Program-made: the position numbers and the translations under genes
Assembly (NCBI GenBank): GCA_035652435.1
Contig: DASRDU010000099.1
Span: 130,453 to 194,452, forward strand
Direction: 5' to 3'
Length of the DNA stretch: 64,000 nucleotides
Source: Blastocatellia bacterium
Lineage (GTDB): Bacteria; Acidobacteriota; Blastocatellia; RBC074
Notes under the pieces: model-generated
Databases searched by the model: none
What the model was told of the DNA's origin: nothing
Seen by the model: the letters and a program-made list of their open reading frames with translations, nothing else
Shown here: positions 2-63,745 of the stretch, one piece after another
Layout of the letters: every line of letters begins with the position of its first letter
Numbering within the stretch: the stretch's first letter is position 1

Positions 2-832
2 GCCGAACGCGCCGATGCAAAATTCCTCTCCGAAATCTACGGCGACCACCCTTACGGGCACAACGTTGACGGGACGGAGAAATCTGTCGCCAGCATCGTC
101 TGGGCCGACGTTCACGATTTCTACCGGCGGTTTTACCTGGCGAACAACGCGGTGGCCGTGGTCACGGGCGACGTTAATCAGGAACGCGCCCTCAGCGTTT
201 TCAGGGCCTTCTTCGGCGGCTGGGTCAAGGGCGCCATCGTGCCGATGACTTTCCGCCAGCCGCAACGCGTGACAACCCTGAAGCTGGTCAGGGTCGAGGC
301 GCCTGAAATGTCCACGGTCGAGTTCCGCGGTGGGGTGATCGGCGTCAGGCAGGCTGACCCCGACTTTATCGCGACGGCCCTGCTCGCCCGCGTGCTGGAA
401 GCGCGGCTCAGGAAAGACAACGGCGACCTTCCGGCAGGGGGTGTTTCAGTGAGAGCCGTGCCGCACGCGCTGGCCGGCCCGTTCTACATTGCGGCTTCAG
501 TGAACGCCGACCGCGCGCCGGAATTTTCAAGGAAGGCGACCGAAAGCTTTGCGGCGCTCGCTACGGCCCCGTTCACCGCCGAGGAACTGGCCGCCGCCCG
601 AGACGGCCTGAATGCCGAGTATGCAGCCCGCCCGATTGAAGATCAGTTGCGCGAAATCGAAACCTCCGCGCTGCCGCGCAATCATGCGCTCACTTTCTCG
701 GGGCGCGTCACTGCCGTCACGACCGCCGATTTGCAGCGCGTCGCCAGGCGGTTGCTCGACGCCAACGCGCTGACGGTCGTGGTGCTGGGCCGGACGGGCG
801 AGCAGTCGAAAGCCCAGACTTCAAACCCATAG
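2..832 (+). CDS. M16 (insulinase/PqqL-like) family peptidase, C-terminal part; 5' end lies outside the window
   Basis: Frame 2 is open from the window edge (AERADAKFLSEIYGDHPYGHNVDG...) and continues into the listed 152..832 ORF. The HPYGH segment and overall alpha/beta composition resemble the non-catalytic half of M16 peptidases. This is a family-level call from memory only. Confidence 0.5.
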   Translation, partial: AERADAKFLSEIYGDHPYGHNVDGTEKSVASIVWADVHDFYRRFYLANNAVAVVTGDVNQERALSVFRAFFGGWVKGAIVPMTFRQPQRVTTLKLVRVEAPEMSTVEFRGGVIGVRQADPDFIATALLARVLEARLRKDNGDLPAGGVSVRAVPHALAGPFYIAASVNADRAPEFSRKATESFAALATAPFTAEELAAARDGLNAEYAARPIEDQLREIETSALPRNHALTFSGRVTAVTTADLQRVARRLLDANALTVVVLGRTGEQSKAQTSNP

Positions 833-834
833 CA

Positions 835-1587
835 ATGCCGTCGCGCCAGGAAATATTGCCGAACGCCGAAATGAACGTGCCGGGCAAGGGCCGGCACGTC
901 CGCGAAATGTTTGCGGAGATCGCGCCGAGCTACGACCGGCTCAATCATCTGCTCTCGGCCAGTGTGGACAAGCGGTGGCGGCGATTCACGGCTGAAAAGC
1001 TGCGCGACGTGCTGTCACGACCGGACGCCGTCGCTCTGGATTTATGCTGCGGCACCGGCGATCTGGCGCTCGTACTGGAACCGCAGGCGCGCGTCATCGG
1101 GTGCGATTTCTGCCACCCGATGCTGGTCCTGGCGCGCGACAAGGCGCGCGCTCGCCGGGCCGACGGACTCGCGCTCGCCGAAGCCGATGCGCTGCGATTG
1201 CCGTTCGGGGATGCGAGCTTTGACGCGGTGACAGTCGCATTCGGGTTGCGCAATCTGGAAAATATCGAAGGCGGGCTGGCCGAAATCCTGCGCGTCCTCA
1301 GGCCGGCCGGGCGCGCCGCGGTGCTGGAATTTTCGCGCCCCGTCGTGCCGGTCTTCCGCGAACTTTTCGAGTTTTACTTCACCCGCATCCTGCCGCGCGT
1401 CGGCGCTCTGGTCTCCGGCTCCGAAGGGGCCTACACCTACCTGCCCGAATCGGTTCGCAACTTTCCCGATCAGAAAAAACTGGCCGCGATGATGCGGGCC
1501 GCGGGTTATTCGGACGTGCGTTATCACAACCTCTGGGGCGGAATCGCCGCACTTCACCTCGGCGAAAGGCCCGGGGCAGGCCGCTGA
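835..1587 (+). CDS. ubiE: Demethylmenaquinone/ubiquinone C-methyltransferase (UbiE/MenG)
   Basis: N-terminal MFAEIAPSYDRLNHLLSASVDKRWRR matches the UbiE signature region. SAM motif I is present (LDLCCGTGDLAL). Length is about 240 aa. The true start may be the internal Met at 871. Confidence 0.85.
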   Translation: MPSRQEILPNAEMNVPGKGRHVREMFAEIAPSYDRLNHLLSASVDKRWRRFTAEKLRDVLSRPDAVALDLCCGTGDLALVLEPQARVIGCDFCHPMLVLARDKARARRADGLALAEADALRLPFGDASFDAVTVAFGLRNLENIEGGLAEILRVLRPAGRAAVLEFSRPVVPVFRELFEFYFTRILPRVGALVSGSEGAYTYLPESVRNFPDQKKLAAMMRAAGYSDVRYHNLWGGIAALHLGERPGAGR

Positions 1588-1682: not shown

Positions 1683-3116
1683 ATGATTTCACCTCTCGCA
1701 TTCTTCTCTGAACAATTCGGCATCGCCGTTTCTGACATCGAAGCGCTGCTCGGCGTGGCGTTGTCGAAGGGGGGCGATTACGCCGACCTTTATTTCGAGT
1801 ATTCCGTCACGAGCAACCTCAACCTCGAAGAGCAGATCGTCAAGTCGGCCAACCGCTCGGTGGCGCAGGGCGTCGGCGTGCGCGTCGTTTCCGGCGAGCG
1901 CACCGGCTACGCTTACTCCGACGAAATTGACCGCGAGGCGATTCGCAAAGCCGCGCTCACCGCCGCGCATATCGCCAGCAGTAACGCCAGTCCCGGCCCG
2001 GTCAATGTCTCCGCCGCGAGTCCGAAGCACGATCTCTATTCGGTCCCGCACGCGCTTACTGAAGAGACGCTGGAACGCAGGATCGCGCTGCTCCGGCGCG
2101 CCGAGCAGACCGCGCGCGCCTACGACCCGCGCATCCGCGAGGTGCAGAGCCTGATCGTGGACAAACACAAGCTGGTTTTGATCGCGACTTCCGACGGAAT
2201 GCTGATCGGCGACGTGCAGCCGCTCGTGCGCATGAACGTGACCTGCATTGCCGACGCCGACGGCAATCTGCAGCGCGGCTATGCGGGCGGCGGCGGGCGC
2301 GACAATCTGGATTTTTTCGAGCAGAAAAGATCGCCGGAGTTTTTTGCCACCGAAGCCGCGCGCCAGGCAATCTCTCTGCTCGATGCCGTGGACGCCCCCG
2401 CCGGGGCGATGGAAGTGGTACTCGGCCCCGGCTGGCCCGGCGTGCTGCTGCACGAGGCCGTCGGTCACGGCTTGGAATCGGACTTCAACCGCAAAGGCAC
2501 TTCGGCTTTTGCCGGGCTCGTCGGCCAGCGTGTCGCGAGCGAACTTTGCACCGTTGTTGATGACGGCACGCTGCCGGGCCGCCGCGGCTCGCTCAACATT
2601 GACGACGAGGGGAACCCGACGACCAGCACCGTGCTGATCGAAAATGGGATTCTGCGCGGCTACCTGCAGGACAAACTGAGCGCCCGGCTGACGGGCGCTG
2701 GCGTAACCGGCAACGGCCGCCGTGAAAGCTATCAGCACGTGCCAATGCCGCGCATGACGAACACCTTCATGCTCGGCGGCGAAAGCACGCCCGAAGAGAT
2801 CATCGCTTCGGTCAAACGCGGCCTGTACGCGGTCAATTTCGGCGGCGGTCAGGTGGACATCACCAACGGGAAATTCGTTTTCACCGCCAGCGAGGCCTAC
2901 CTGATCGAAGACGGCAGAATCACCGCGCCGGTCAAGGGCGCCACGCTCATCGGCAACGGCCCGAACGCGCTGACGAAGGTGACAGCCGTCGGCAATGACC
3001 TGCGGCTCGACGAGGGCGTCGGCGTCTGCGGCAAGAACGGACAGTCGGTGCCGGTGGGAGTTGGCATGCCGACGATCAGGATTTCCGAGATGACTGTGGG
3101 TGGGACGAAAGGGTGA
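1683..3116 (+). CDS. tldD: Metalloprotease TldD (peptidase U62)
   Basis: 477 aa. Contains the HExxxH motif (HEAVGHGLE) and the C-terminal GxC glycine-rich segment typical of TldD. A PmbA-type paralogue is encoded just downstream. Confidence 0.9.
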   Translation: MISPLAFFSEQFGIAVSDIEALLGVALSKGGDYADLYFEYSVTSNLNLEEQIVKSANRSVAQGVGVRVVSGERTGYAYSDEIDREAIRKAALTAAHIASSNASPGPVNVSAASPKHDLYSVPHALTEETLERRIALLRRAEQTARAYDPRIREVQSLIVDKHKLVLIATSDGMLIGDVQPLVRMNVTCIADADGNLQRGYAGGGGRDNLDFFEQKRSPEFFATEAARQAISLLDAVDAPAGAMEVVLGPGWPGVLLHEAVGHGLESDFNRKGTSAFAGLVGQRVASELCTVVDDGTLPGRRGSLNIDDEGNPTTSTVLIENGILRGYLQDKLSARLTGAGVTGNGRRESYQHVPMPRMTNTFMLGGESTPEEIIASVKRGLYAVNFGGGQVDITNGKFVFTASEAYLIEDGRITAPVKGATLIGNGPNALTKVTAVGNDLRLDEGVGVCGKNGQSVPVGVGMPTIRISEMTVGGTKG

Positions 3117-3144
3117 TGTTGTTATACGTACATCCGAGGTTTTT

Positions 3145-3537
3145 ATGTGTCGTTACGCTGGCATGAATTATAAAGGGCATTACGCGTGCTTCGATTGCCG
3201 CAAGGCTTTCAAGGAGCGAAACGGTTTTGGGGGAGAAGAATATAAGCAGAAATACGGTGAACACCGGAAGGTGCTTTGCCCCGAATGTCATCGCCCGATG
3301 GCAGACTTGGGCCTTGATTTCAAAGCTCCCAAGAAAATGGACGTGAAGCAGTGGCAAAAAGTTGAGATCCTCTACAATCACGGGTTCACATATCATTCCT
3401 GTGGATGTTGCGGGCCGGGCCTGCGGCCCGCTGAATTGCGCGATGTAGAGGCTTTTCTTCATGACAAGCTACCCGAATCTGATGGCGAGAAACTTCTTAA
3501 GAAGATAGAAAGGGCAGCCAGTAATCGAAAGCAATAA
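3145..3537 (+). CDS. Small Cys-rich zinc-ribbon protein of unknown function (131 aa), inserted between tldD and pmbA
   Basis: GAGG at 3135-3138, then ATG at 3145. Cysteine pairs CFDC...CPEC...CGCC, followed by a charged helical C-terminus. Local GC is clearly lower than the flanks. The listed ORF start at 3100 overlaps tldD and is less plausible. Confidence 0.55.
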   Translation: MCRYAGMNYKGHYACFDCRKAFKERNGFGGEEYKQKYGEHRKVLCPECHRPMADLGLDFKAPKKMDVKQWQKVEILYNHGFTYHSCGCCGPGLRPAELRDVEAFLHDKLPESDGEKLLKKIERAASNRKQ

Positions 3538-3590
3538 AAGCAGCGAGTTGCCCGAATCTCAAACTCTGAAAGTTTCCCTCGAACTATTGG

Positions 3591-4955
3591 ATGACAACAC
3601 AAATTTCAACTCACTTTCTCTCCGACATCGTCAGCAAAGCGGTCAGGCGCGGCGCGACTGAAGCCGAGGCAATCGCGCTTGAAAACACCGATTTCTCCGT
3701 CGAAGTGCGGCTCGGAGAAATCGAGAAGCTTGAGGAATCGGCTTCGCGTGGCCTGGGACTGCGCGTGATTTATGAGGGCCGGCAGGCTTCGGCTTCGACT
3801 TCGGATTTTTCGGCGAAGGCGCTCGATGAATTGATCACGAGCGCGGTCGAGATGGCCCGGCTGACTTCGGTTGATGACGCGGCGGTGCTGCCTTCGCGCG
3901 AGGAACTTTTATCTGCCGGCGGAGTCAATAGCGGCGATCTGGCGCTGTACGATGAATCCATCGTGCTGCTCCCGACCGGGCGCAAAATCGAAATGGCCTG
4001 CACGGCCGAGGCCGCGGCACGAGACGCTGACCCGCGCATCACCAATTCCGAGGGCGCGTCGTGCGCGACCACGGTCGGTCGGCTGACTCTGGTGAACAGC
4101 TCGGGGTTTGCGGGCGAATATCGCGGCACGACGTGCTACCTTTCGGTTTCGCCGATCGCGCGTGACGGCGATCAGATGCAGGTGGCCGGCTGGGGGGACA
4201 CTCAACGCTCACTGGCGGCGCTGGACAGGCCGGAAGAACTCGGACGGGAAGCGGCGCGGCGAGCGCTACGCAAACTCGGCGGGCGCAAAGTGGGGACGCA
4301 GGAAGTCCCGATTGTCTTTGAATCCGGCGCGGCTGAAGAACTGCTCGGTGATCTCTTTGAGGCCGCGAGTGGCGAATCCATCTTCCGCCGCGCCTCGTTC
4401 CTGGTCGGGCAGACCGGCGAACGGATCGGCTCGGAGCAGCTGACGATTGTGGACGACGGGAGGCTGCCCGGCGCGGTCGGCTCGCGGCCTTTCGACGGCG
4501 AGGGGCTGCCGACGCGGCGGACGGTGATTGTCGAAAACGGGGTGCTGCGGAGTTACTTGCTCAATACCTACACGGCGCGTAAGCTGGGCCTGCGTTCGAC
4601 GGCCAACGGCGCGCGCGGGCTGTCTGGCCTGCCGGGCGTCGGCATCAATAACTTCTTCATCGCGCCCGGGCGTCATTCGCCCGAAGAGATCGTCGCTTCC
4701 GTCGGCAACGGGTTTTACGTGACCGAAACGATTGGCTTCGGCTTCAACGCGGTGACGGGTGATTACTCGCGCGGCGCTTCCGGCGTGTGGATTGAACAGG
4801 GCAGGCTCAGTTACCCGGTCGAAGAGGTCACCATCGCCGGCAACTTCCGCGAGATGCTGCGCGGAATCGAAATGATTGGCAACGATCTCCGCTTCCGGGG
4901 CAAGATCGCGGCCCCGACCGTCAAAATCAACCGGATGATGGTCAGCGGAGACTGA
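3591..4955 (+). CDS. pmbA: Metalloprotease PmbA/TldE (peptidase U62, non-HExxH partner of TldD)
   Basis: 454 aa. Alignable with the upstream TldD (GxGxR, C-terminal GxxxxGD region) but lacks HExxxH. The tldD-pmbA arrangement is classical. Confidence 0.85.
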   Translation: MTTQISTHFLSDIVSKAVRRGATEAEAIALENTDFSVEVRLGEIEKLEESASRGLGLRVIYEGRQASASTSDFSAKALDELITSAVEMARLTSVDDAAVLPSREELLSAGGVNSGDLALYDESIVLLPTGRKIEMACTAEAAARDADPRITNSEGASCATTVGRLTLVNSSGFAGEYRGTTCYLSVSPIARDGDQMQVAGWGDTQRSLAALDRPEELGREAARRALRKLGGRKVGTQEVPIVFESGAAEELLGDLFEAASGESIFRRASFLVGQTGERIGSEQLTIVDDGRLPGAVGSRPFDGEGLPTRRTVIVENGVLRSYLLNTYTARKLGLRSTANGARGLSGLPGVGINNFFIAPGRHSPEEIVASVGNGFYVTETIGFGFNAVTGDYSRGASGVWIEQGRLSYPVEEVTIAGNFREMLRGIEMIGNDLRFRGKIAAPTVKINRMMVSGD

Positions 4956-4956
4956 G

Positions 4957-5499
4957 TTGAACCCTGCGGATTTCCGACACCTTATGTTCGAACCAGAATC
5001 AGAGAAAGCCAAAGAACAACAGCGCTCGCGCCTGCTCCTGGGCCTGGGGGCGATTGCCGCCCTGGTCGTCGCCGGGGCGTTCATTATTTTCGCGACGCTC
5101 AAGCAGCAGGCGGAATCGCCGACGATGCCCGACGCCCTGCGGGCGGGCAATCAGGAGTTCGAAAATTACAAATCCAAAGTGGAGATTGACAAGCCCAACA
5201 AGCAGGACGTGATGGCGCAGCAGAACCTGATGGGGATGGTGCAGTTCACGATTCAAGCCGAGTTGCGTAATCAGGGTGATCGCACGCTCACCGGAATTGA
5301 GATCGTCGCCCAGGCTTATGACCTTGAGGACAAGCTGATCGCGCAGAAAATCGGCCAGCCGATCCCCCGCGTGCGGCCTGAGCCGCTTAAGCCGGGCGAG
5401 TCAATGCGCATCGCGATCAAGCTTGACGTTCCGTCGAAGTATAAGGAAGCAGATGTCAAACTGGTGAAGGCTGAGCTTCATGGGCTGCGGTTCCAGTAG
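4957..5499 (+). CDS. Hypothetical membrane-anchored protein (single N-terminal TM)
   Basis: GGAG at 4947-4950 precedes a TTG at 4957; an alternative ATG lies at 4984. Hydrophobic stretch LLLGLGAIAALVVAGAFIIFATL. The stop is followed by a hairpin terminator. Confidence 0.55.
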   Translation: MNPADFRHLMFEPESEKAKEQQRSRLLLGLGAIAALVVAGAFIIFATLKQQAESPTMPDALRAGNQEFENYKSKVEIDKPNKQDVMAQQNLMGMVQFTIQAELRNQGDRTLTGIEIVAQAYDLEDKLIAQKIGQPIPRVRPEPLKPGESMRIAIKLDVPSKYKEADVKLVKAELHGLRFQ

Positions 5500-5603: not shown

Positions 5604-6971
5604 TTAGTCGTGATTCTTCGGCTGGGCTTCCATAATCTTAGGCTGAACCTCAATGGCCGCGGTCGTTGGCGTCGCGCCCGGACCGAGGAATCGCGTGGAG
5701 ATGCTGCGATAAATCTTGCCCGCCACATCCGCGGCGCGCTTGCCCGCCTCGCCCGAACCGTTGGTGATCACCGTCACCACCAGCTTCGGGTTGGTGATGC
5801 TGGAAAATGAAGTGAACAGGCCGAGCTTGGCCGAATCGCCGGTGCAGGTCCCGGTCTTGCCCGCGACCTGTCCGATCGGGTCGTAGGCGGCTCTGGCCGT
5901 GCCGTAATTGACCGCGCCAATCATCCCGGAGAGCATGCGCAGGCGGTCTTCCGGGGTCATCTCAATTTTACGCCTCAACTCCGGCTTGAAGCTGGCGGCC
6001 TCTTCAGGAGTGCGCGGGATGCGCGGCACGTAAAGGTAACCGCCATTCGCGATGGCCGCGGTGAAGCTTGCCAGCTGAATCGCCGTGAAGCCGAAACCGT
6101 CGCCGTGGCTCGACATATGGCCGGTGTTCTGTTCGCCTTCCTCGGGCAGGAACCCGTCGCTCTCGCCCAGATAATTGGCCCCGGTCTTCTGGCCGAAGCC
6201 GAAATTATGGGCATAGCCGATGACCTTTTCGTAGCCAAGGCGGCGGCCCAGTTCCTGGAAGAACGGGTTATTCGAGTGGGCGATGGCGTCCGTCAGGTTC
6301 AGGCCACGACCGTTGCTCGCCAGCTGCAGGTCCGTACTCGGGTCGAGAACCTTCTCGTGCAATGCCGCCATGCCGACGACCAGCTTGACGGTCGAGCAGG
6401 GCTTGACGGGCGAGCCAAGGGCCATGCGCTGGTTGACGATCGCGTAGATGCGTCCGTTGGTCGCGTCCATCACCACCGCCGTGCCGGCCCTGCCGCCGAG
6501 CGCCTCAATGGCGGCGCGACGCACGTCAGGGTCTTCACCGGTCGTGTTGTCCTTGAGAATGTTGGCGGCGGCGCTGTTGTGCAGCGCCTCATCGCGGGCG
6601 CGGATGGCGCGCAGGCGGGCGGCGCGGATGGCGGCGGCCCGGGCCGCTGCCTGGCGCCGCTCTTCGGCGCGGTAAGATGCCAGCAGCTTGCGCTCGGACT
6701 TGCTCAGTCCGCCGCGGCGCTGGCGCTTCATCATATCGCGTAGCTGACTCTGACTGATTTGCGGGCCGCGACGGGCTTCGCGACTGTGACGGCCCCCGCG
6801 AGTGGAGGCGACTCGCTCACGGCCTTTGGATTTCCCCTTCTTCCCTTCTTTGGCGGCTGCTGCGCGGTGGCGCTTTTTCGCGTACGCGGTGCCATTGGGG
6901 GAGATGACCACGAGTGCGCTGAACAGAGCGAACACGAACGTGGTCGTGACAGCACGATTGACTGATTTCAT
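5604..6971 (-). CDS. Penicillin-binding transpeptidase-fold protein with signal peptide and long polybasic N-terminal segment
   Basis: SxxK (STVK), SxN (SNN) and KTG (KTGT) motifs occur in the correct order. The signal peptide MKSVNRAVTTTFVFALFSALVVISPNGTAYA starts at the ATG at 6971, preceded by GGAAAGG. The listed ORF extends to 7028, but that start is less likely. Confidence 0.75.
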   Translation of the reverse strand: MKSVNRAVTTTFVFALFSALVVISPNGTAYAKKRHRAAAAKEGKKGKSKGRERVASTRGGRHSREARRGPQISQSQLRDMMKRQRRGGLSKSERKLLASYRAEERRQAAARAAAIRAARLRAIRARDEALHNSAAANILKDNTTGEDPDVRRAAIEALGGRAGTAVVMDATNGRIYAIVNQRMALGSPVKPCSTVKLVVGMAALHEKVLDPSTDLQLASNGRGLNLTDAIAHSNNPFFQELGRRLGYEKVIGYAHNFGFGQKTGANYLGESDGFLPEEGEQNTGHMSSHGDGFGFTAIQLASFTAAIANGGYLYVPRIPRTPEEAASFKPELRRKIEMTPEDRLRMLSGMIGAVNYGTARAAYDPIGQVAGKTGTCTGDSAKLGLFTSFSSITNPKLVVTVITNGSGEAGKRAADVAGKIYRSISTRFLGPGATPTTAAIEVQPKIMEAQPKNHD

Positions 6972-7390
6972 TCTCAATACCTTTCCTGTAACCTGTGACA
7001 ACGATCTCCCTGCTGACAACAGTTCCACTGCGGGGAAACTATCATTCGTCAGCCAGCCGCGGTTTTCGCGCCGGCCGGCTTCAGGGGTATTGGATAGTTG
7101 TGGATCTGATGTGAAGTGATCGCGCCGAACCTCGTGATGAATGGCACCACGTAACTACGGCCCCAGCAGCCGTATTGCACGACGTCACCACTATCGGAAT
7201 GAGCGTTGTCCCTGTACAATTGAAGAGCAAGCGCACAGCAGGCTTCCCTCTATGGCTTTGTTACCGCGAAAGCCGGGGGCAGGCGCACGGGCAGAGTCTA
7301 GCAAATTCAATTGACCGGCACAACGGGTAATCAGAGGAATGTCAGATTAAAAACACTTCTCCGCGGCCCTTTCGTCCCCGGATTGTTCGT

Positions 7391-25359: not shown

Positions 25360-26361
25360 ATGGATCTATTCGATCAGGTGTTTGGTGTTTTGGAGGAGGA
25401 GGTAGAGTTTGAGCTGCGTGAAAGTGTCTTCATTCCATGGGCCGATCATTGGCTGAACCCACGCCAACTGCGCGGCAGTGATTTTCTGATGCGATGGTCA
25501 CAGGGAGCTTGGAGCGAGCTTCGTTTGAAAGAGGCTGTCAATCGCACCGGCAGGTTTTATGCACTTCCTTACGGGCCAAGTGGTGCCGCGCCTGACAATG
25601 ATCCGCGTAAGGCCGAGCTTTACTTTCTGCGACTGGAGCAGGCAGGAATTGGGAAAGTGAAACGACCTGATTTGCTGCTCTTTCGAGAGAGTGACAGGAA
25701 AACGGTTGAAGAGATTGTTCTGAAAATTGCAGCCGAGGCAGAGGGCTTCTCTGCTGGAGATGACATCGAGAAAGCCATTACGGAATTACCCTTCACGCCG
25801 GAAGATCACCCATTGATTCAATCGCTGCTTTCGAAGGCATCCTTGGCAATTGAATGTGAAAACAGTTTGTGGGTGGCGAAAAGGATGCCACTCTATGGTC
25901 AGCCGATGAAGCCGATGAAGCGACTCGGCGGCAAACCGGGACTGAAGAAGAATTCGGTTCTGCCGACTGTGATCCTCAAGAATGAAGACCGTGATCCGCT
26001 GAAAGCCTGGCAAAGACAGCGCAATATTCCGATTCATATCTGGCATGTCTTCTACGATCTGGCTTTCGGCATCGCTTTGGACGAAGCAGAGAGACTGATT
26101 GCGGAAGGACTCATTGAACCGATAGAACAGACTTTCCAGGCTCCCGGCGGGCAGGTAACGAAGAAAGCCATTTACAAGATCTACTATCATTACGCTTATG
26201 AACTTGGCGAGGCGCACGAACAACCATCTCTGATTGCTGCCAGCATTATTGATAAAAACGGTCACGTTCTGCCTTACGTGAAGTTTGAAGGTGGCAGTCT
26301 GGCTTTGAGCGAGCAGGCATTGGCGGTTCTGGAAGAGGCCGCGAGCAAACACAACCTATGA
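25360..26361 (+). CDS. Hypothetical protein, candidate restriction endonuclease or effector of an R-M-like cassette (333 aa)
   Basis: Low-GC. The stop overlaps the start of the downstream N6-adenine MTase by 4 nt (ATGA). A possible PD...(D/E)xK-like segment is KRPDLLLFRESDRK. No family was recognised from memory. Confidence 0.4.
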   Translation: MDLFDQVFGVLEEEVEFELRESVFIPWADHWLNPRQLRGSDFLMRWSQGAWSELRLKEAVNRTGRFYALPYGPSGAAPDNDPRKAELYFLRLEQAGIGKVKRPDLLLFRESDRKTVEEIVLKIAAEAEGFSAGDDIEKAITELPFTPEDHPLIQSLLSKASLAIECENSLWVAKRMPLYGQPMKPMKRLGGKPGLKKNSVLPTVILKNEDRDPLKAWQRQRNIPIHIWHVFYDLAFGIALDEAERLIAEGLIEPIEQTFQAPGGQVTKKAIYKIYYHYAYELGEAHEQPSLIAASIIDKNGHVLPYVKFEGGSLALSEQALAVLEEAASKHNL

Positions 26362-27896
26362 TTCCCCGACTCACACAACAAAAACTCCCTTCGTCCGGCC
26401 CCGCACGCGAAGCTTTGCGCGAGAAAGGTCAGTTCTGGACACCGGCATGGGTAGCTGAAGCGATGGTCGCCTGGTGTGTGGCTGGTGGCAGCGACACCCT
26501 TTTTGACCCGGCCGTCGGTGGGGGCGCATTCTTCCACGCGGCTAAAGCGGTCGGACAGGAACGGGGACGGATGCTGCGGCTGCTGGGAACGGAGATTGAT
26601 CCAGAGGCTTTGCAGCAGGCGTTATCGAGTGGGCTTTCATCTTGTGATCTGACAGGCGTTGAAATCAGAGACTTCGTCTTGCAGCCCCCATCAGCCCGCT
26701 ATCAGGCTGTGGTCGCAAATCCACCATATATTCGCCATCATCGGTTACTGCAATCGACCAAAGAAAAGCTCAAACGATTCGGTGCAGAGTTAATTGGTGA
26801 AAGCTTGGACGGTCGCGCCGGGCTGCACATTTACTTTCTACTACGCGCGGTGCAGTTGCTCGCGCCAGATGGTCGGCTGGCTTTCATTATGCCAGCCGAT
26901 ACCTGCGAAGGAATTTTCGCTCGAACTCTCTGGCGGTGGATTACAACACATTACTGTCTTGAAGCTGTGATCACATTCGCGCCGGACGCCTCGCCGTTCC
27001 CCAGCGTAGACACCAATCCGGTCATCTTCCTGATCCGCAATGCCGCTCCGAAAGCGCGATTTCACTGGGCGCGCTGCACACAGGCGGAGACAGGCGACCT
27101 CAAAACGTGGCTGGACTCAGACTTCAGAGAGGCCCCGCTGGATCATCTGGAAATCTACGAACGAGAAACAGCGGAGGGCATTTCATCAGGATTGTCACGA
27201 CCGCCTGCTGAGACGGGGAACGTCAACATGACTCTGTCGGACTTTGCCCGGGTTATGCGTGGCATTGCGACCGGTGCGAACGAGTTTTTCTTTCTGACCA
27301 GGAAGCAGGCTGAAGAGTTGAATATTCCTGAAACAATGCTCCTTCCTGCCGTTGGGCGCACGCGTGATGTGCCGGGCGAAGTCGTCACGCAGGAGACTCT
27401 TCAGCAACTGGAAGAATCCGGCAGGCCGACATGGCTTTTCGCTCCGGATGGCCGTGACCTGAATTTATTTCCTGACTCAGTGCGTGAATACCTGCTGAAA
27501 GGGCTGGAAGCGGGATTGAATCAGAGGCCGCTCATCGCGCAGCGACGCCCCTGGTACAGGATGGAGGCGCGCCGCGCCCCTGAATTTCTTTTCGCATATC
27601 TCGGTCGTCGCAACGCAAGGTTTATTCGCAACGTTGCCAGCGTTATGCCGCTGACCGGATTCCTGTGTGTTTATCCCCGCAGCAATGATCCTGCCTTTGT
27701 CGAGAAATTGTGGCAGGTGCTTCGACATCCGGACACGGTGAAAAACCTCGCCGCGGTGGGCAAGTCCTATGGCTCAGGCGCAATCAAGGTCGAACCTCGT
27801 GCGCTCGAACGCCTGCCAATTCCCGATCACATCATCGGGGGGGCGGACTTAAAGCCGGTACTACAGCAACCAACCTTACCGGGTGCGTTGTGGTGA
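26358..27896 (+). CDS. N6-adenine DNA methyltransferase, gamma-class (motif X-I-IV order, C-terminal TRD)
   Basis: Motif X-like QFWTPAWVAEAMV. Motif I DPAVGGGAFF. Motif IV VVANPPYIRHH. 512 aa with a long C-terminal region consistent with a target-recognition domain. Resembles Eco57I/TaqI-type N6 DNA methylases. Confidence 0.85.
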   Translation: MIPRLTQQKLPSSGPAREALREKGQFWTPAWVAEAMVAWCVAGGSDTLFDPAVGGGAFFHAAKAVGQERGRMLRLLGTEIDPEALQQALSSGLSSCDLTGVEIRDFVLQPPSARYQAVVANPPYIRHHRLLQSTKEKLKRFGAELIGESLDGRAGLHIYFLLRAVQLLAPDGRLAFIMPADTCEGIFARTLWRWITTHYCLEAVITFAPDASPFPSVDTNPVIFLIRNAAPKARFHWARCTQAETGDLKTWLDSDFREAPLDHLEIYERETAEGISSGLSRPPAETGNVNMTLSDFARVMRGIATGANEFFFLTRKQAEELNIPETMLLPAVGRTRDVPGEVVTQETLQQLEESGRPTWLFAPDGRDLNLFPDSVREYLLKGLEAGLNQRPLIAQRRPWYRMEARRAPEFLFAYLGRRNARFIRNVASVMPLTGFLCVYPRSNDPAFVEKLWQVLRHPDTVKNLAAVGKSYGSGAIKVEPRALERLPIPDHIIGGADLKPVLQQPTLPGALW

Positions 27897-59075: not shown

Positions 59076-59636
59076 TCACTCTTCTCCATTCACTGCAACA
59101 GCCTCATCACCATACCGTCGCCGCCGGAATTCTCTGATCTGACCGGCCGTGAACAAACGACGATGACCCAGACTGCGCTTCGGGCGCAGCTCTCCATTCT
59201 GGCAGTAACCGAGCAGCGTCAACTGTCCCACCCCGAGCATCCGTGCTGCTTCCGGTTCGCTCAATTCAACATCGTCGCTGAGGTCGGCAAAAGAGCCTGA
59301 ACACTCGTGAATCGCCGCCCCCAGCGGCGTCGCCCAGAACAGCGCCGGGATCTCGCCTTCGTGACTCGGAGCCTTGCCGAAAAGAATTCGCAGCAGCTGT
59401 TTGCAGGTGCTGTAAACGTCCGGGACTTCACGAATGCCAGCGGCGTGATCAAATGCATCGCGCATCATCTGAGCCAGCGGACACGTGCTGGTCTGCTCAA
59501 TGGTCGGGGACTTGATTTCAGAACCGGGCAGGATCAGTTGCGCGATCACCCAGCGCGCTTCGTGAAAAACACGACTGACTTGGGCGCGAATGTCATCTTC
59601 GATTTCCCGGGGCGTGAACTCAAACGATTTTTTCAT
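59076..59636 (-). CDS. Hypothetical protein with C-terminal excisionase-type helix-turn-helix
   Basis: LSEPEAARMLGVGQLTLLGYCQNGELRPKRSLGHRRLFTAGQIREF matches the HTH_17/excisionase-family DNA-binding pattern. Start at the ATG at 59636. The listed ORF extends 16 codons further upstream. Confidence 0.55.
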   Translation of the reverse strand: MKKSFEFTPREIEDDIRAQVSRVFHEARWVIAQLILPGSEIKSPTIEQTSTCPLAQMMRDAFDHAAGIREVPDVYSTCKQLLRILFGKAPSHEGEIPALFWATPLGAAIHECSGSFADLSDDVELSEPEAARMLGVGQLTLLGYCQNGELRPKRSLGHRRLFTAGQIREFRRRRYGDEAVAVNGEE

Positions 59637-59639
59637 AAT

Positions 59640-60028
59640 TGAGCGTCTGCTCTGCAATGCCGCAATCTGCTCTGACCGTAGCACGGCCCGTCACTTACTG
59701 TAAACGTCAAACAGTTATTGTAAAAATCCAAAATAATTGATGAATATCAGAAGCTCTGACCATTTTTGATAAAAGTTTCTATGAAAATCTGGCCGTTCGG
59801 CACTCTGATCTCCAGAAAACCAAATGAAATTCATAAAAATGGATGAAGTAAACAAATTTCCGTATGTAGGAGTCCCATAAGTTTCCTAGTTACAACACCA
59901 GATGGTATAGAGTCCATCGGCATAAGACTTGCACACTTATAAGAATTCACCGAATTTACATTTTGGAACCGAATCGGAATTTCTGATTCCATCAACACAA
60001 AAGCCTATCAAAACAGGAGGTAACTACC
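59640..60028 (+). promoter_or_regulatory. About 390-bp AT-rich leader/promoter region upstream of the TonB-dependent receptor
   Basis: Roughly 35-40% GC against a mid-60s % background. Multiple A/T tracts and short direct repeats (GAATTTC, CGAATCGGAATTTCTGATTCC). Ends with AGGAGG 8 nt before the TTG start. Confidence 0.5.
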
Positions 60029-63000
60029 TTGAAGTTTCTGAACAGATTTCTTGTCCTGTCCTGTCTCTTAAGCTTGTTTGTTGGAACCGCAACAGCTCAG
60101 AACGCTCTCGGGCGCATTGCCGGAACCGTGAGGGATCAGGCTGGCGCCGTAGTTCCCGGGGCAAAAGTGACTCTCACCAACGAAACCACCGGACAACTGA
60201 TCCAGACGACGACCTCGAATAATGAGGGTGTGTTCCTGTTTCCACAGCTGACGCCATCCTCCTACACCGTCAGGATCGAGATGGCCGGATTCAAGTCAGT
60301 CGCTTATAACGAAGTGAAGGTTGACCCCGGACAGGAGTATTCGCTCGTAGCGTCTTTGGAAGTCGGACAGGCCGGCGAGGTCGTTCAGGTCACGGCCGGG
60401 GCCGATCTGGTCAACACCAGCAATCCGGAAATCAACAATACTGTCATCCGCCGTCAGATTGTTGACCTGCCGCTGAATGGTCGCAACCCGATTGAACTGA
60501 TCAGACTTCAGGCCGGTGTCGTCGGGCTGCCCACGCGCACCAACACAACGATCAACGGCGGTCGCCCGACCTGGACGCAGCTGACGCAGGACGGCATCAA
60601 CATACAGGACAACTTCATCCGCACCAACTCGCTTGACTTTGTCCCCAATCGCCCGACCACGGATACGATTGCCGAGTTCACCATCACTACCAATACCCAG
60701 GGCGCAGATTCAGCCGGCGGGGCTTCTCAGGTCAAACTGGTGACGCCCGCAGGAACCAACCAGTTTCATGGCAGCCTTTACGAGTTCAACCGCAACTCGG
60801 CTTTCGCTGCCAACAGCTGGTTCAATAACCGGACGATAAATGCCAGCACCGGTAAATCCGTCCCGCGTCCTTTCCTCAACCGCAATCAGTTTGGCGGTAA
60901 TATCAGCGGGCCGGTGCTTGTTCCGAAGAAAGTTTTCGGCCCGCTCGGTGGCTGGAATGACAACAAGGATAAACTCTTCTTCTTCTTTAGCTATGAAGGC
61001 TTCCGCCAACGCACTCAGACGACACAGAACAATACGATCCCGGCAAATAATGATTTCCTGACCGGCGTGTTCAGATATGTACGCCCGAGTGATAGTTCAG
61101 TACAGGCAGTCAATGTTCTCTCCATCCTGCCGGGGGTAACACTGGATCCCAAGGTGAAGAACCTGCTTCTGGATCCGGTGCCGCCTGCATCCCAGGTCAA
61201 CAACTTTGACGTGGGTAACTCGACCGCAACACGTATCCTCAACACGGCGGGCTACCGGTTCAATCAGGGCGACGTGAACGACCGTAACCAGTACGGCTTC
61301 CGCTTTGATTATCAGGCGAATGAAAGGCATCGTTTTGAGTTCATCCACACCCATTTCAAGGAAATAGATGACCGCACCGATCTTGATTTAATTAACCAGC
61401 GCCCCAAGGTCTTCACCGATGCCAATGTCAGGTTGTATGTCGGCGCCTGGCGCTGGACGGTCACGCCGAAGCTGCAGAATGAATTGCGCATCGGCGCAAA
61501 CCTGGCGCCGGTGGATTTCAAGTCGAATGAGAATTTCAGCGGGTTTATCTGGAATATTCCCTTCCTCACTCTCCGCGAGGCGAACTTCCAGCCTCAGGGA
61601 CGCAACACGCGGACGTTTCAGTACATTGACAACGCTTCGTACGTCGCCGGCAATCACTCGCTCCAGTTCGGCGGCAGCCTCCAGCGGATCAAGGTTAACC
61701 CTTACAACTTTGCCGGGCGGTTCCCGACTGTGAATTTTGGCTTCAGTTCTGCTGCCCCTGCCAGTGTTCAGTTGACTGCGGCGAACTTCCCGGGCGGGTC
61801 AATCAGTGCCACTGATCTGGCCAACGCGAATGCGTTGCGGACTTTCCTCGGAGGTGTCGTCAGTTCGGTATCACAAACCTTCCAGGTCAAAGACAAAACT
61901 TCCGGCTTCGTCGGCGGCATTCCGAATGACCGTAACTTCATCCTCGACAACTGGTCGTCTTACCTGCAGGATAACTGGCGCATCAGGCCCAATCTCAGTC
62001 TTCGCCTCGGGTTGAAGTGGGAATATTTCAGTCCACTCAGGGAGGAAGACGATCTGCAACTCCTGCCCGTCATCAGCGGGGATGTGAGATCAACCCTGCT
62101 TAGCCAGAACGCGACACTTGATTTCGTCAAGGGCGATTTCTACAAAAAGGATCTCAACAATTTCGGCCCCTCAGTCGGCTTCGCATGGGATCCGTTCAAG
62201 GACGGTAAGACTTCAGTTCGCGCGGGCTACACTATGACCTTCGTCAATGAGGAGACCATTACCGTCGGACGCGCCGCCTCAAACAGTAACAGCGGGTTGT
62301 CAACGGGGGCATCGCTGCTTAATCAGTATGCTACCGTTAATGCTGGCGTCCCTGTCATCCCCACGCCGACCTTCAAGGTTCCCCGCACTTATGCTGATCA
62401 GCTGGCGCTGAGTCTGACTTCCAGCGCGTTCGCGATTGATCCCAATATCAAACAGCCGTACGTTCACCAGATCAGTTTCAGTATTGAACGTGAATTGTTC
62501 TGGGATCTGGCGGTTGAGGGACGCTACGTCAGCACGATGGGCAGAGATGTCTGGCGTGGCATTGAGCTGAATCAGCTCGGTTTCAGTAACGCCTTCCTGC
62601 AGGATTTCCTGAAGGCGCGCAGCAACGGATTTATTGCGCTCAACACTCCGGCCACGACCCCGGGCTGCACGGCTGCAACCTGCGGCGTCTTCAACCCCGA
62701 TTACAATGCCAACCTGCCGGGCAGCCAGCAAATCCCTGAGATAACAAAATTTGGTGGTGGCCTGCTGACTCAGGCCGCCGTCAGAAGTGCGATTCAGACA
62801 GGGCAACCGGCCAGCTTGGCCAGCACTTACATCACTTCCACCGCCAGCCGCAGTGCGGCCTTGGGAGCGGGCTTCCTGCCGAATCCGGGTATTTTCGGCG
62901 CGGGCCTGATTCTGAACGGAGGGACGACTGATTATCACGCTTTCCAGGGTGAAATTCGCCGCCGCTTCAAGAACGGCATCTTTGGTCAGATGAACTATAC

Positions 63001-63745
63001 CTTCAGCAAGGTGCTGACCAACTCAGCTGGCACCGCGCAGAATCGGTTCGAGCCTTACGTTGACAATGCGCGTTCTGAGATTGACAAAACGCGTGCCGAG
63101 TTCGACGTGACTCACGTGATCAATGCCAGCATGATTTATGAACTTCCCTTCGGGAGGGGGAAACGTTTCCTCGGCAACACAAACGGTGTTTTCGATCGGA
63201 TCATCGGAGGCTGGCAGGTCAGTTCGATCGTCCACTATCAGAGTGGCGCCCCGATCTCCATCCTGTCAGGGCGCGGCACGTTCAGTAACACCGGGAGCAA
63301 TCCTGCCGTTTCGACTCTGACGCGTGACCAGATCAAGGACCTGTTTGGCATCCGCAAGATGCCCGACGGCCGGGTGTTTTACATTGACCCCAAAGTCACT
63401 GATCCGGCTACCGGGCGCGCAGTGGGGGCTGATAATCTCGGCAACACTGCCGGGTTCAGCGGTCAGGTCTTCTTCCACCCCACAGCCGGAAATATAGGCA
63501 CGTTACAGCGATTGCAGTTTGATGGCCCGTCTCAGACCTCCTGGGACTTCTCGGCGATCAAACGCATCCGTTTCGATGCTGAAGGGGTAAGGAATCTGGA
63601 GTTCCGCGCTGACTTCTTCAACTTCCTCAATCACCCCCTCTTCTTTGTGGGCGATTACAACATTGACAGTACTCAGTTCGGAAGAATCACGAGTCTGAAC
63701 TTCGGCGCGCGCGTCGTGCAGCTTTCTTTGAAGTTCAATTTCTAG
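60029..63745 (+). CDS. TonB-dependent outer-membrane receptor with N-terminal carboxypeptidase-regulatory-like domain
   Basis: TTG start after AGGAGG. Signal peptide. IAGTVRDQAGAVVPGAKVTLTN (CarbopepD_reg-like). Plug region. Very long beta-barrel with a C-terminal aromatic residue (KFNF). Architecture is typical of Acidobacteria and Bacteroidetes. Confidence 0.85.
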   Translation: MKFLNRFLVLSCLLSLFVGTATAQNALGRIAGTVRDQAGAVVPGAKVTLTNETTGQLIQTTTSNNEGVFLFPQLTPSSYTVRIEMAGFKSVAYNEVKVDPGQEYSLVASLEVGQAGEVVQVTAGADLVNTSNPEINNTVIRRQIVDLPLNGRNPIELIRLQAGVVGLPTRTNTTINGGRPTWTQLTQDGINIQDNFIRTNSLDFVPNRPTTDTIAEFTITTNTQGADSAGGASQVKLVTPAGTNQFHGSLYEFNRNSAFAANSWFNNRTINASTGKSVPRPFLNRNQFGGNISGPVLVPKKVFGPLGGWNDNKDKLFFFFSYEGFRQRTQTTQNNTIPANNDFLTGVFRYVRPSDSSVQAVNVLSILPGVTLDPKVKNLLLDPVPPASQVNNFDVGNSTATRILNTAGYRFNQGDVNDRNQYGFRFDYQANERHRFEFIHTHFKEIDDRTDLDLINQRPKVFTDANVRLYVGAWRWTVTPKLQNELRIGANLAPVDFKSNENFSGFIWNIPFLTLREANFQPQGRNTRTFQYIDNASYVAGNHSLQFGGSLQRIKVNPYNFAGRFPTVNFGFSSAAPASVQLTAANFPGGSISATDLANANALRTFLGGVVSSVSQTFQVKDKTSGFVGGIPNDRNFILDNWSSYLQDNWRIRPNLSLRLGLKWEYFSPLREEDDLQLLPVISGDVRSTLLSQNATLDFVKGDFYKKDLNNFGPSVGFAWDPFKDGKTSVRAGYTMTFVNEETITVGRAASNSNSGLSTGASLLNQYATVNAGVPVIPTPTFKVPRTYADQLALSLTSSAFAIDPNIKQPYVHQISFSIERELFWDLAVEGRYVSTMGRDVWRGIELNQLGFSNAFLQDFLKARSNGFIALNTPATTPGCTAATCGVFNPDYNANLPGSQQIPEITKFGGGLLTQAAVRSAIQTGQPASLASTYITSTASRSAALGAGFLPNPGIFGAGLILNGGTTDYHAFQGEIRRRFKNGIFGQMNYTFSKVLTNSAGTAQNRFEPYVDNARSEIDKTRAEFDVTHVINASMIYELPFGRGKRFLGNTNGVFDRIIGGWQVSSIVHYQSGAPISILSGRGTFSNTGSNPAVSTLTRDQIKDLFGIRKMPDGRVFYIDPKVTDPATGRAVGADNLGNTAGFSGQVFFHPTAGNIGTLQRLQFDGPSQTSWDFSAIKRIRFDAEGVRNLEFRADFFNFLNHPLFFVGDYNIDSTQFGRITSLNFGARVVQLSLKFNF

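Follow-up and report, generated by a model that had tools for sequence, protein, structure and literature searches.

What is a small cysteine-rich gene doing between tldD and pmbA (tldE), the genes for the two subunits of the TldD/PmbA protease, in a Blastocatellia bacterium? The gene lies in a stretch of 64,000 nucleotides (positions 130,453 to 194,452 of contig DASRDU010000099.1, GenBank assembly GCA_035652435.1), referred to here as the window and numbered from its first letter. On direct reading of the sequence the tldD stop codon is the TGA at 3114–3116, the gap between tldD and pmbA is 474 nt, and this gap carries an open reading frame (ORF) of 130 aa (3145..3537, +) for which homologues, alignments and an AlphaFold2 (AF2) model indicate a protein of pI 9.0 that would have a Cys4 zinc ribbon (C15, C18, C45, C48), possibly a second metal site, and a helical tail at the C-terminus. 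An initial annotation of this DNA had placed a 131-aa ORF in a tldD-pmbA gap of ~470 bp and treated it as an unexplained gene within a conserved operon; the ORF and the gap stand while the length is 130 aa, and the premise was correct. Our explanation, to which we assign a probability of about 0.78, is that the gene was acquired horizontally by one Blastocatellia lineage and inserted as a passenger into the tldD-pmbA spacer.

The nearest TldD proteins are those of other Blastocatellia, and in four lineages (L087, L088/L089, L090 and L100; TldD 83–86% identical) the spacer between tldD and pmbA is only 17–23 nt long. The window and all four share one gene order, namely an M16 peptidase gene, a UbiE methyltransferase gene, tldD, pmbA, a 173-aa gene (180 aa in the window) and a convergent gene for a penicillin-binding protein. 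In alignments to L087, L088 and L090, whose sites are empty, the extra DNA starts directly after the tldD stop and homology resumes at ~3563, where the window reads 'ctgaaagtttccc...ATG' and the relatives read 'ctgaa-cttcctgatctctgATG'. The inserted, lineage-specific DNA therefore spans ~445 nt (3117..3562, +; right boundary approximate) and is formed of a 28-nt leader between the tldD stop and the ATG of the small ORF, the ORF itself and a short trailer. Of the 53 nt that separate the end of the ORF from the pmbA ATG at 3591, the last part (3563..3590, +; boundary inferred) aligns to the 17–23-nt spacers of the relatives and would be the remnant of the native spacer. At the tldD-pmbA site the gene is lineage-specific.

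The inserted DNA also differs from its surroundings in composition, with a GC content of 0.48–0.50 over 3100–3600 compared with 0.62–0.68 in the flanks, which bears out the earlier remark that the gap is far more AT-rich than everything around it. Equally AT-rich windows of 390 nt make up only 1.6% of the 64 kb. The small ORF has a GC of 0.495 and a GC at third codon positions (GC3) of 0.531, while 36 long ORFs in the window give a host GC3 of 0.742 +/- 0.068. Encoded with host codon preferences the small protein would be expected to have a GC3 of 0.718, and the deficit therefore reflects codon usage, beyond what amino-acid composition alone would produce. The composition of the small ORF is foreign. 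Among 86 loci that carry homologues of the gene, its GC tracks that of the host (r = 0.91, mean difference -0.03), whereas the deficit of ~-0.15 against the flanks at the tldD/pmbA site is larger than in any of these 86 loci, which indicates a comparatively recent transfer. The closest homologues are 60–64% identical and include a copy from an Anaerolineales metagenome-assembled genome (MAG) that is 62% identical and has 48.5% GC, and a lower-GC lineage such as Anaerolineales is a plausible donor. Of three options offered at the outset for this gene, only the third, a recently acquired insertion, is supported.

The small ORF is a real, conserved and intact gene. A word-indexed search returned 229 homologues at E<=0.01, an exhaustive HMMER scan returned 928 clusters (50% identity) at E<=1e-3, and a profile search returned 1,130 homologous proteins, all with hypothetical or spurious labels and none with a Pfam domain; 470 coding stretches came from a scan that took one genome for each GTDB species. 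The hosts include Chloroflexota, Planctomycetota, Myxococcota, Verrucomicrobiota, Cyanobacteria, Deinococcota, Gemmatimonadota, Bacteroidota and Acidobacteriota, together with many species of Paenibacillus and Brevibacillus. Family members are basic proteins of ~120–135 aa (median pI 9.4, with 96% of members >8), and the window protein is 45–64% identical to homologues from many phyla, with E values of 1e-28 to 1e-47 over 91–100% of the query. A full-text search of the literature on the family gave no result.

The family is uncharacterised and has the form MCRY...CxxC...CPxC...DFKAP...W...CGC, and the window protein has all of its hallmarks (MCRY, C15xxC18, C45-P-x-C48, G56-x-D-F-K-A-P62, W70, G80, C86-G-C88 and P95), with all near-invariant residues present (M1 C2 R3 Y4, C15 F16 C18, C45 P46 C48, G56 D58 F59 P62, W70, G80, C86 G87 and P95). 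The CxxC...CxxC pair and additional CGCC of the initial annotation are likewise there, as C15xxC18, C45xxC48 and C86-G-C88-C89. No structural difference separates the window protein from the rest of the family; what sets it apart is the tldD-pmbA position, unique among the 86 loci, and the largest GC mismatch with its host. In 269 sequences conservation is 0.98 at C15, 0.99 at C18, 1.00 at both C45 and C48, 0.88 at C2, 0.93 at C86 and 0.94 at C88, and is lower at the histidines (0.75 at H12 and 0.59 at H84). The MCRY N-terminus is invariant in a 34-sequence alignment and 88–96% conserved per position in the 269 sequences, which marks 3145 as the true start. The database record of an identical protein from a Blastocatellia MAG (P0001) starts at Met7, giving 124 aa, and so lacks the conserved Cys2. 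An antisense ORF (3076–3462, -; 128 aa) was considered as the gene and rejected, as the cross-phylum conservation is all in the + frame; in a second assembly of the locus, L097, the gene caller took this antisense frame (L097 2104–2490, -) over the conserved + frame, which is likely a mis-annotation. The initial annotation had allowed for a translated artefact of AT-rich DNA; the small ORF is no such artefact, being conserved and having a ribosome-binding site.

This site is the Shine-Dalgarno-like GAGG at 3136..3139 (+), read directly from the sequence 5 nt ahead of the ATG at 3145, as had been noted before. Promoter- and terminator-like matches in a motif scan were at chance level, with none in the spacers. 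In 72 of 83 family loci (87%) the gene upstream runs in the same direction, compared with a background of 72% in the same loci (binomial p ~0.001, uncorrected for shared ancestry). With a Shine-Dalgarno sequence of its own, no detectable promoter and co-directional upstream genes, read-through from the host operon is the most economical source of transcripts, and the gene is probably co-transcribed with tldD and pmbA. In the history that we propose, one Blastocatellia lineage would have acquired the intact gene horizontally, and the gene would have landed in a ~20-nt spacer directly past the tldD stop, where it would be translated from its own ribosome-binding site and carried along, as a passenger, in read-through transcripts of the tldD-pmbA operon. 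Its protein may work alone, with no conserved partner gene.

The same site holds different DNA in a sister lineage. The closest TldD relative (87% identity, two metagenomes; L098 1938–2484 and L099 1823–2354) has another insert after tldD, in which the first gene, beginning 10 nt past the tldD stop, encodes a DUF433 protein (123 aa; Pfam E 2.5e-11) and is followed by a second small ORF (MLRILVDQDF...) that is not PmbA; both contigs end before the position of pmbA. We take these two genes to resemble a DUF433/DUF5615-type toxin-antitoxin pair. A different insert at the same place in the closest relative points to the spacer as a recurrent landing site for small accessory genes. In Pyrinomonadaceae, likewise Blastocatellia, a family member has come to lie between sufC and sufD, in the company of further small inserted genes. 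The two inserts are alike in their landing site right after the tldD stop, in being compact, in having their own translation signals and in leaving the flanking genes undisturbed. Unlike the DUF433 module and toxin-antitoxin-type spacer genes, the window insert is a single gene with no partner and resembles no known family of toxins, antitoxins or defence proteins.

Four points weigh against horizontal acquisition as a simple passenger. Firstly, the window and the second assembly, L097, share 99.4% identity over 5 kb and show 0 mismatches in the 474-nt gap, which argues against a chimera, but the two assemblies may share the same source reads. Secondly, the mechanism of insertion has left no trace, as no terminal repeats, target-site duplication, recombinase or conserved flanking motif was found: the flanks of the insert hold only short repeats at chance level, neither terminal inverted repeats nor a target-site duplication nor an attC-like hairpin being present, and ~60 family loci have no flanking motif in common. 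Thirdly, the statistics on gene orientation and on the co-occurrence of cysteines are uncorrected for shared ancestry and based on crude ORF calls. Lastly, the position in the operon implies co-expression with TldD/PmbA, and an interaction may therefore have evolved secondarily in this lineage. Among candidate mobile units, an integron gene cassette, an insertion sequence element and a miniature inverted-repeat transposable element were rejected, there being no attC hairpin and no terminal inverted repeats with a target-site duplication. An Rfam scan of 2900–3800 gave only a chance snoRNA match (E 0.74) and nothing credible.

The main rival to horizontal acquisition as a passenger, which we consider unlikely, is that the gene belongs to selfish or semi-autonomous 'operon-hitchhikers', which lack a promoter, spread into the spacers of expressed operons and might be kept by an addictive, anti-defence or toxin-like activity with no benefit to the host. 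The family does occur as a solo gene inside housekeeping operons of two Blastocatellia lineages, between tldD and pmbA in the window and between sufC and sufD in Pyrinomonadaceae (L091 and L047), and in L012 it lies between two sulfatase paralogues; the excess of co-directional upstream genes described above fits the same picture. The company that it keeps at sufC and sufD is toxin-antitoxin-like, the suf operon (sufC ... sufD ... sufS) of L091 (3000–9400) and L047 (4700–8300) being interrupted by many small genes that include HepT/MNT, MqsA-like, the zinc-ribbon member, VapB-like, Uma2 and PemK, and the DUF433 module occupies the tldD-pmbA site in the nearest relative. The high cross-phylum identity and patchy distribution also speak for such spread, as do copies on plasmids (25 plasmid matches, mostly Streptomyces) and relatives in giant viruses. 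Against this, searches turned up neither a partner gene nor a recombinase, a nuclease motif, terminal repeats or any flanking sequence conserved between loci, PADLOC and PHROG gave no matches, and the family is near-absent from phages, with members in 0 of 50,697 phage records and 6 weak matches among the 2.9 million viral contigs of IMG/VR. Furthermore, in most hosts the gene has the GC of its genome and keeps the same neighbours within a genus, which together indicate long vertical residence. A type II toxin-antitoxin or anti-phage defence gene was rejected for want of a neighbour conserved across phyla and of a PADLOC match. Clustered at 90% identity the family comprises at least 1,100 groups, and its members occur in ~470 GTDB species; that it constitutes a new class of stand-alone, promoter-less operon-hitchhiker genes with a previously unseen two-metal-site fold, spreading between phyla, persisting in the spacers of active housekeeping operons and directed at nucleic acids, we find a shade more doubtful still. 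The copy in L047 has in-frame stops and is either a pseudogene or affected by long-read sequencing error.

Far less probable is a second rival, in which TldD/PmbA would have the small protein as its dedicated substrate, partner or regulator, for example with the charged tail of the small protein threaded into the proteolytic chamber, as the initial annotation had proposed. The placement of the gene exactly between the two subunit genes, with which it is probably co-expressed, and a helical, charged C-terminal tail modelled with a predicted local distance difference test (pLDDT) of only 78–87 are in keeping with this. We used tblastn with the window TldD and PmbA against the 86 homologue loci, covering 5–6 kb to either side at E<=1e-5, and found a TldD or PmbA homologue beside a family member in none of them; across genomes the gene is unlinked to tldD and pmbA. 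The homologues are scattered, an outcome that the initial annotation had named as speaking against its idea, and the four close relatives have the same operon without the gene, their 17–23-nt spacers being empty. In addition, the nearest relative has the unrelated DUF433 module at the site, and its codon usage shows the gene to be foreign and recent. TldD/E acts on unfolded peptides, and its known clients are the microcin B17 precursor McbA and the CcdA antitoxin. The window protein resembles these clients in being small and encoded near tldD/E, in this one genome, but it has no sequence relationship to them, is predicted to be folded and metal-bound, and shows no co-occurrence with tldD/E elsewhere. 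A specific functional tie to the TldD/PmbA protease is not supported.

Nor does any other gene accompany the family consistently. Clustering of ~1,300 flanking ORFs revealed synteny within genera only, with no neighbour recurrent across phyla, and the neighbourhoods inspected were heterogeneous (a PheRS-like gene, an RsmB-like methyltransferase gene, sulfatases, a DnaJ-like gene, quinone oxidoreductases, GNAT, a DUF1501 gene and others). Quinone-oxidoreductase genes lie upstream in two phyla (L007 and L085), and as conserved neighbours these were set aside as probable coincidence. On a plasmid of Deinococcus taeanensis (L096 4001–7925) the family member has an AAA_33 kinase-like gene 10 nt downstream, followed by a Thg1-family gene and, at a greater distance, Hen1; this RNA-repair-like cluster was rejected as a partner context, as it is found in no other locus.

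The weakest rival, an assembly or binning chimera of the MAG or a chance frame in an AT-rich spacer, might appeal to the MAG source (the names of P0001 and P0269), to the abrupt shift in composition at the gene borders and to the antisense call in L097, yet it is barely credible given junctions that fall precisely between an intact stop and an intact start with both flanking genes full length, the identical 474-nt segment in L097, a + frame with hundreds of homologues and every near-invariant residue kept, and an Rfam scan with nothing credible in the region.

Turning to the protein itself, its AF2 model has a pLDDT of 81 and a predicted template modelling score of 0.66, and places helices at 98–108 and 113–129, in agreement with the charged helical tail described initially. 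The pattern of conservation argues with moderate support for two structural metal sites, the Cys4 ribbon and a second site that would clamp the N-terminal Cys2 to the C86-G-C88 loop, possibly with H12 or H84. Consistent with this, proteins that have C2 tend also to have both C86 and C88 (odds ratio 6.9, p = 5e-4), an association uncorrected for phylogeny and confounded by mis-called starts. The first module resembles generic Cys4 zinc-ribbon proteins (FmdB/CxxC_CxxC_SSSS TIGR02605/PF09723, the TFIIE-alpha zinc ribbon and the aRF1 C-terminal ribbon), but unlike these the window protein has an extra conserved module of ~50 aa (DFKAP...W...CGC.GPG.RP), a further conserved Cys triad and a helical tail.

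Scans of the window protein and diverse homologues with Pfam, NCBIfam, PHROG and PADLOC gave only sub-threshold generic zinc-ribbon noise, with no model for the family. The window protein had no match to the zinc-ribbon models of Pfam and NCBIfam even at E<=1, and a Deinococcus homologue scored 20.3 bits against FmdB (TIGR02605/PF09723), below the 31.3 cutoff. No structure in the PDB matched the whole fold of the model, and the PDB sequence-profile matches were to C2H2 zinc-finger arrays only, through likeness to 'Y-x-C-x-x-C-x-K-x-F', and were dismissed as compositional or convergent. Domain fusions were limited to one 305-aa member with a sub-threshold GAF-like stretch, other longer members having nothing. 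A free-standing homing endonuclease (HNH or GIY-YIG) was also rejected, there being no nuclease match in Pfam, NCBIfam or PHROG, no invariant His or Asn, and D58 as the sole invariant acidic residue. Tentatively, and with odds clearly below even, the protein may be a small, basic, metal-stabilised stand-alone factor that binds nucleic acid or protein, a role suggested by its basic pI, by conserved Arg/Lys and aromatic positions, by the ribbon scaffold and by the lack of invariant residues of a catalytic kind.

In structure, the model has significant neighbours only among proteins of giant viruses, the uncharacterised BFVD entries A0A3G5AHL5, A0A3G5AIS7 and A0A1V0SI76 (Satyrvirus, Sylvanvirus and Klosneuvirus) at 21–28% identity, a hint that nucleocytoplasmic large DNA viruses also have members of the family. 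Distant members in Streptomyces, 109-aa zinc-ribbon proteins, are mislabelled 'deoxyxylulose-5-phosphate synthase', an example being L094 4989–5318 on the linear plasmid NZ_CP108228.1 of Streptomyces canus. Several of the Streptomyces plasmid copies lie within a few kb of linear-plasmid ends, adjoining helicase, helix-turn-helix (HTH) and XRE genes.

As an event, the horizontal gain of a hypothetical gene is ordinary, and the family is already in databases as unnamed hypothetical proteins. For TldD/PmbA biology the gene carries little weight, being no missing client or regulator and unsuited for inferring the function of the protease. It does offer a clean, datable case of a single foreign gene in a ~20-nt operon spacer, and, with another module in its place in the sister lineage, it marks such spacers as landing pads that are used repeatedly. 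The family is of mild interest, being an uncurated fold across many phyla; a large cross-phylum group with no Pfam or NCBIfam model or solved structure, a mis-called start and a misleading Streptomyces label would reasonably repay curation and work in structural genomics, and the cultured hosts (Paenibacillus, Brevibacillus, Deinococcus and Streptomyces) make experimental follow-up feasible.

The genes on both sides of the insert are intact. tldD (1683..3116, +) encodes 477 aa, the same length as in the relatives, with three PmbA_TldD Pfam domains and an NCBIfam TldD equivalog score of 597 bits (cutoff 513). pmbA (3591..4955, +) encodes 454 aa compared with 453 aa in the relatives and likewise has three PmbA_TldD Pfam domains, while its NCBIfam PmbA score of 308 bits is under the equivalog cutoff of 438; the curated model lies some way from the divergent PmbA proteins of Blastocatellia. 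The remaining synteny markers are the C-terminal part of an M16-family peptidase (152..832, +; Pfam Peptidase_M16_C, E 6e-10), which has the same place in L087, L088 and L100, a UbiE/COQ5-type methyltransferase (835..1587, +; Pfam Ubie_methyltran, 210 bits) that is syntenic in relatives, the 180-aa protein downstream of pmbA (4957..5499, +), which has a weak DUF3426 match and the 173-aa gene at the equivalent place in relatives, and the convergent penicillin-binding transpeptidase (5604..7028, -; Pfam Transpeptidase, 135 bits), also syntenic in relatives.

Elsewhere in the window there is a second low-GC patch at 25360–27896 (+; GC 0.46–0.51), where the reading frame of an AccI-like restriction endonuclease (333 aa) runs at its end into the beginning of that of an Eco57I/N6-type DNA methyltransferase (512 aa), and the pair is probably a horizontally acquired restriction-modification system. 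The lowest GC of the window (down to 0.36) is at 59400–59950, a span that covers the 5' end of an HTH_17/MerR-like ORF (59076–59684, -) and then the intergenic region before a 1,238-aa ORF (60029–63745, +).

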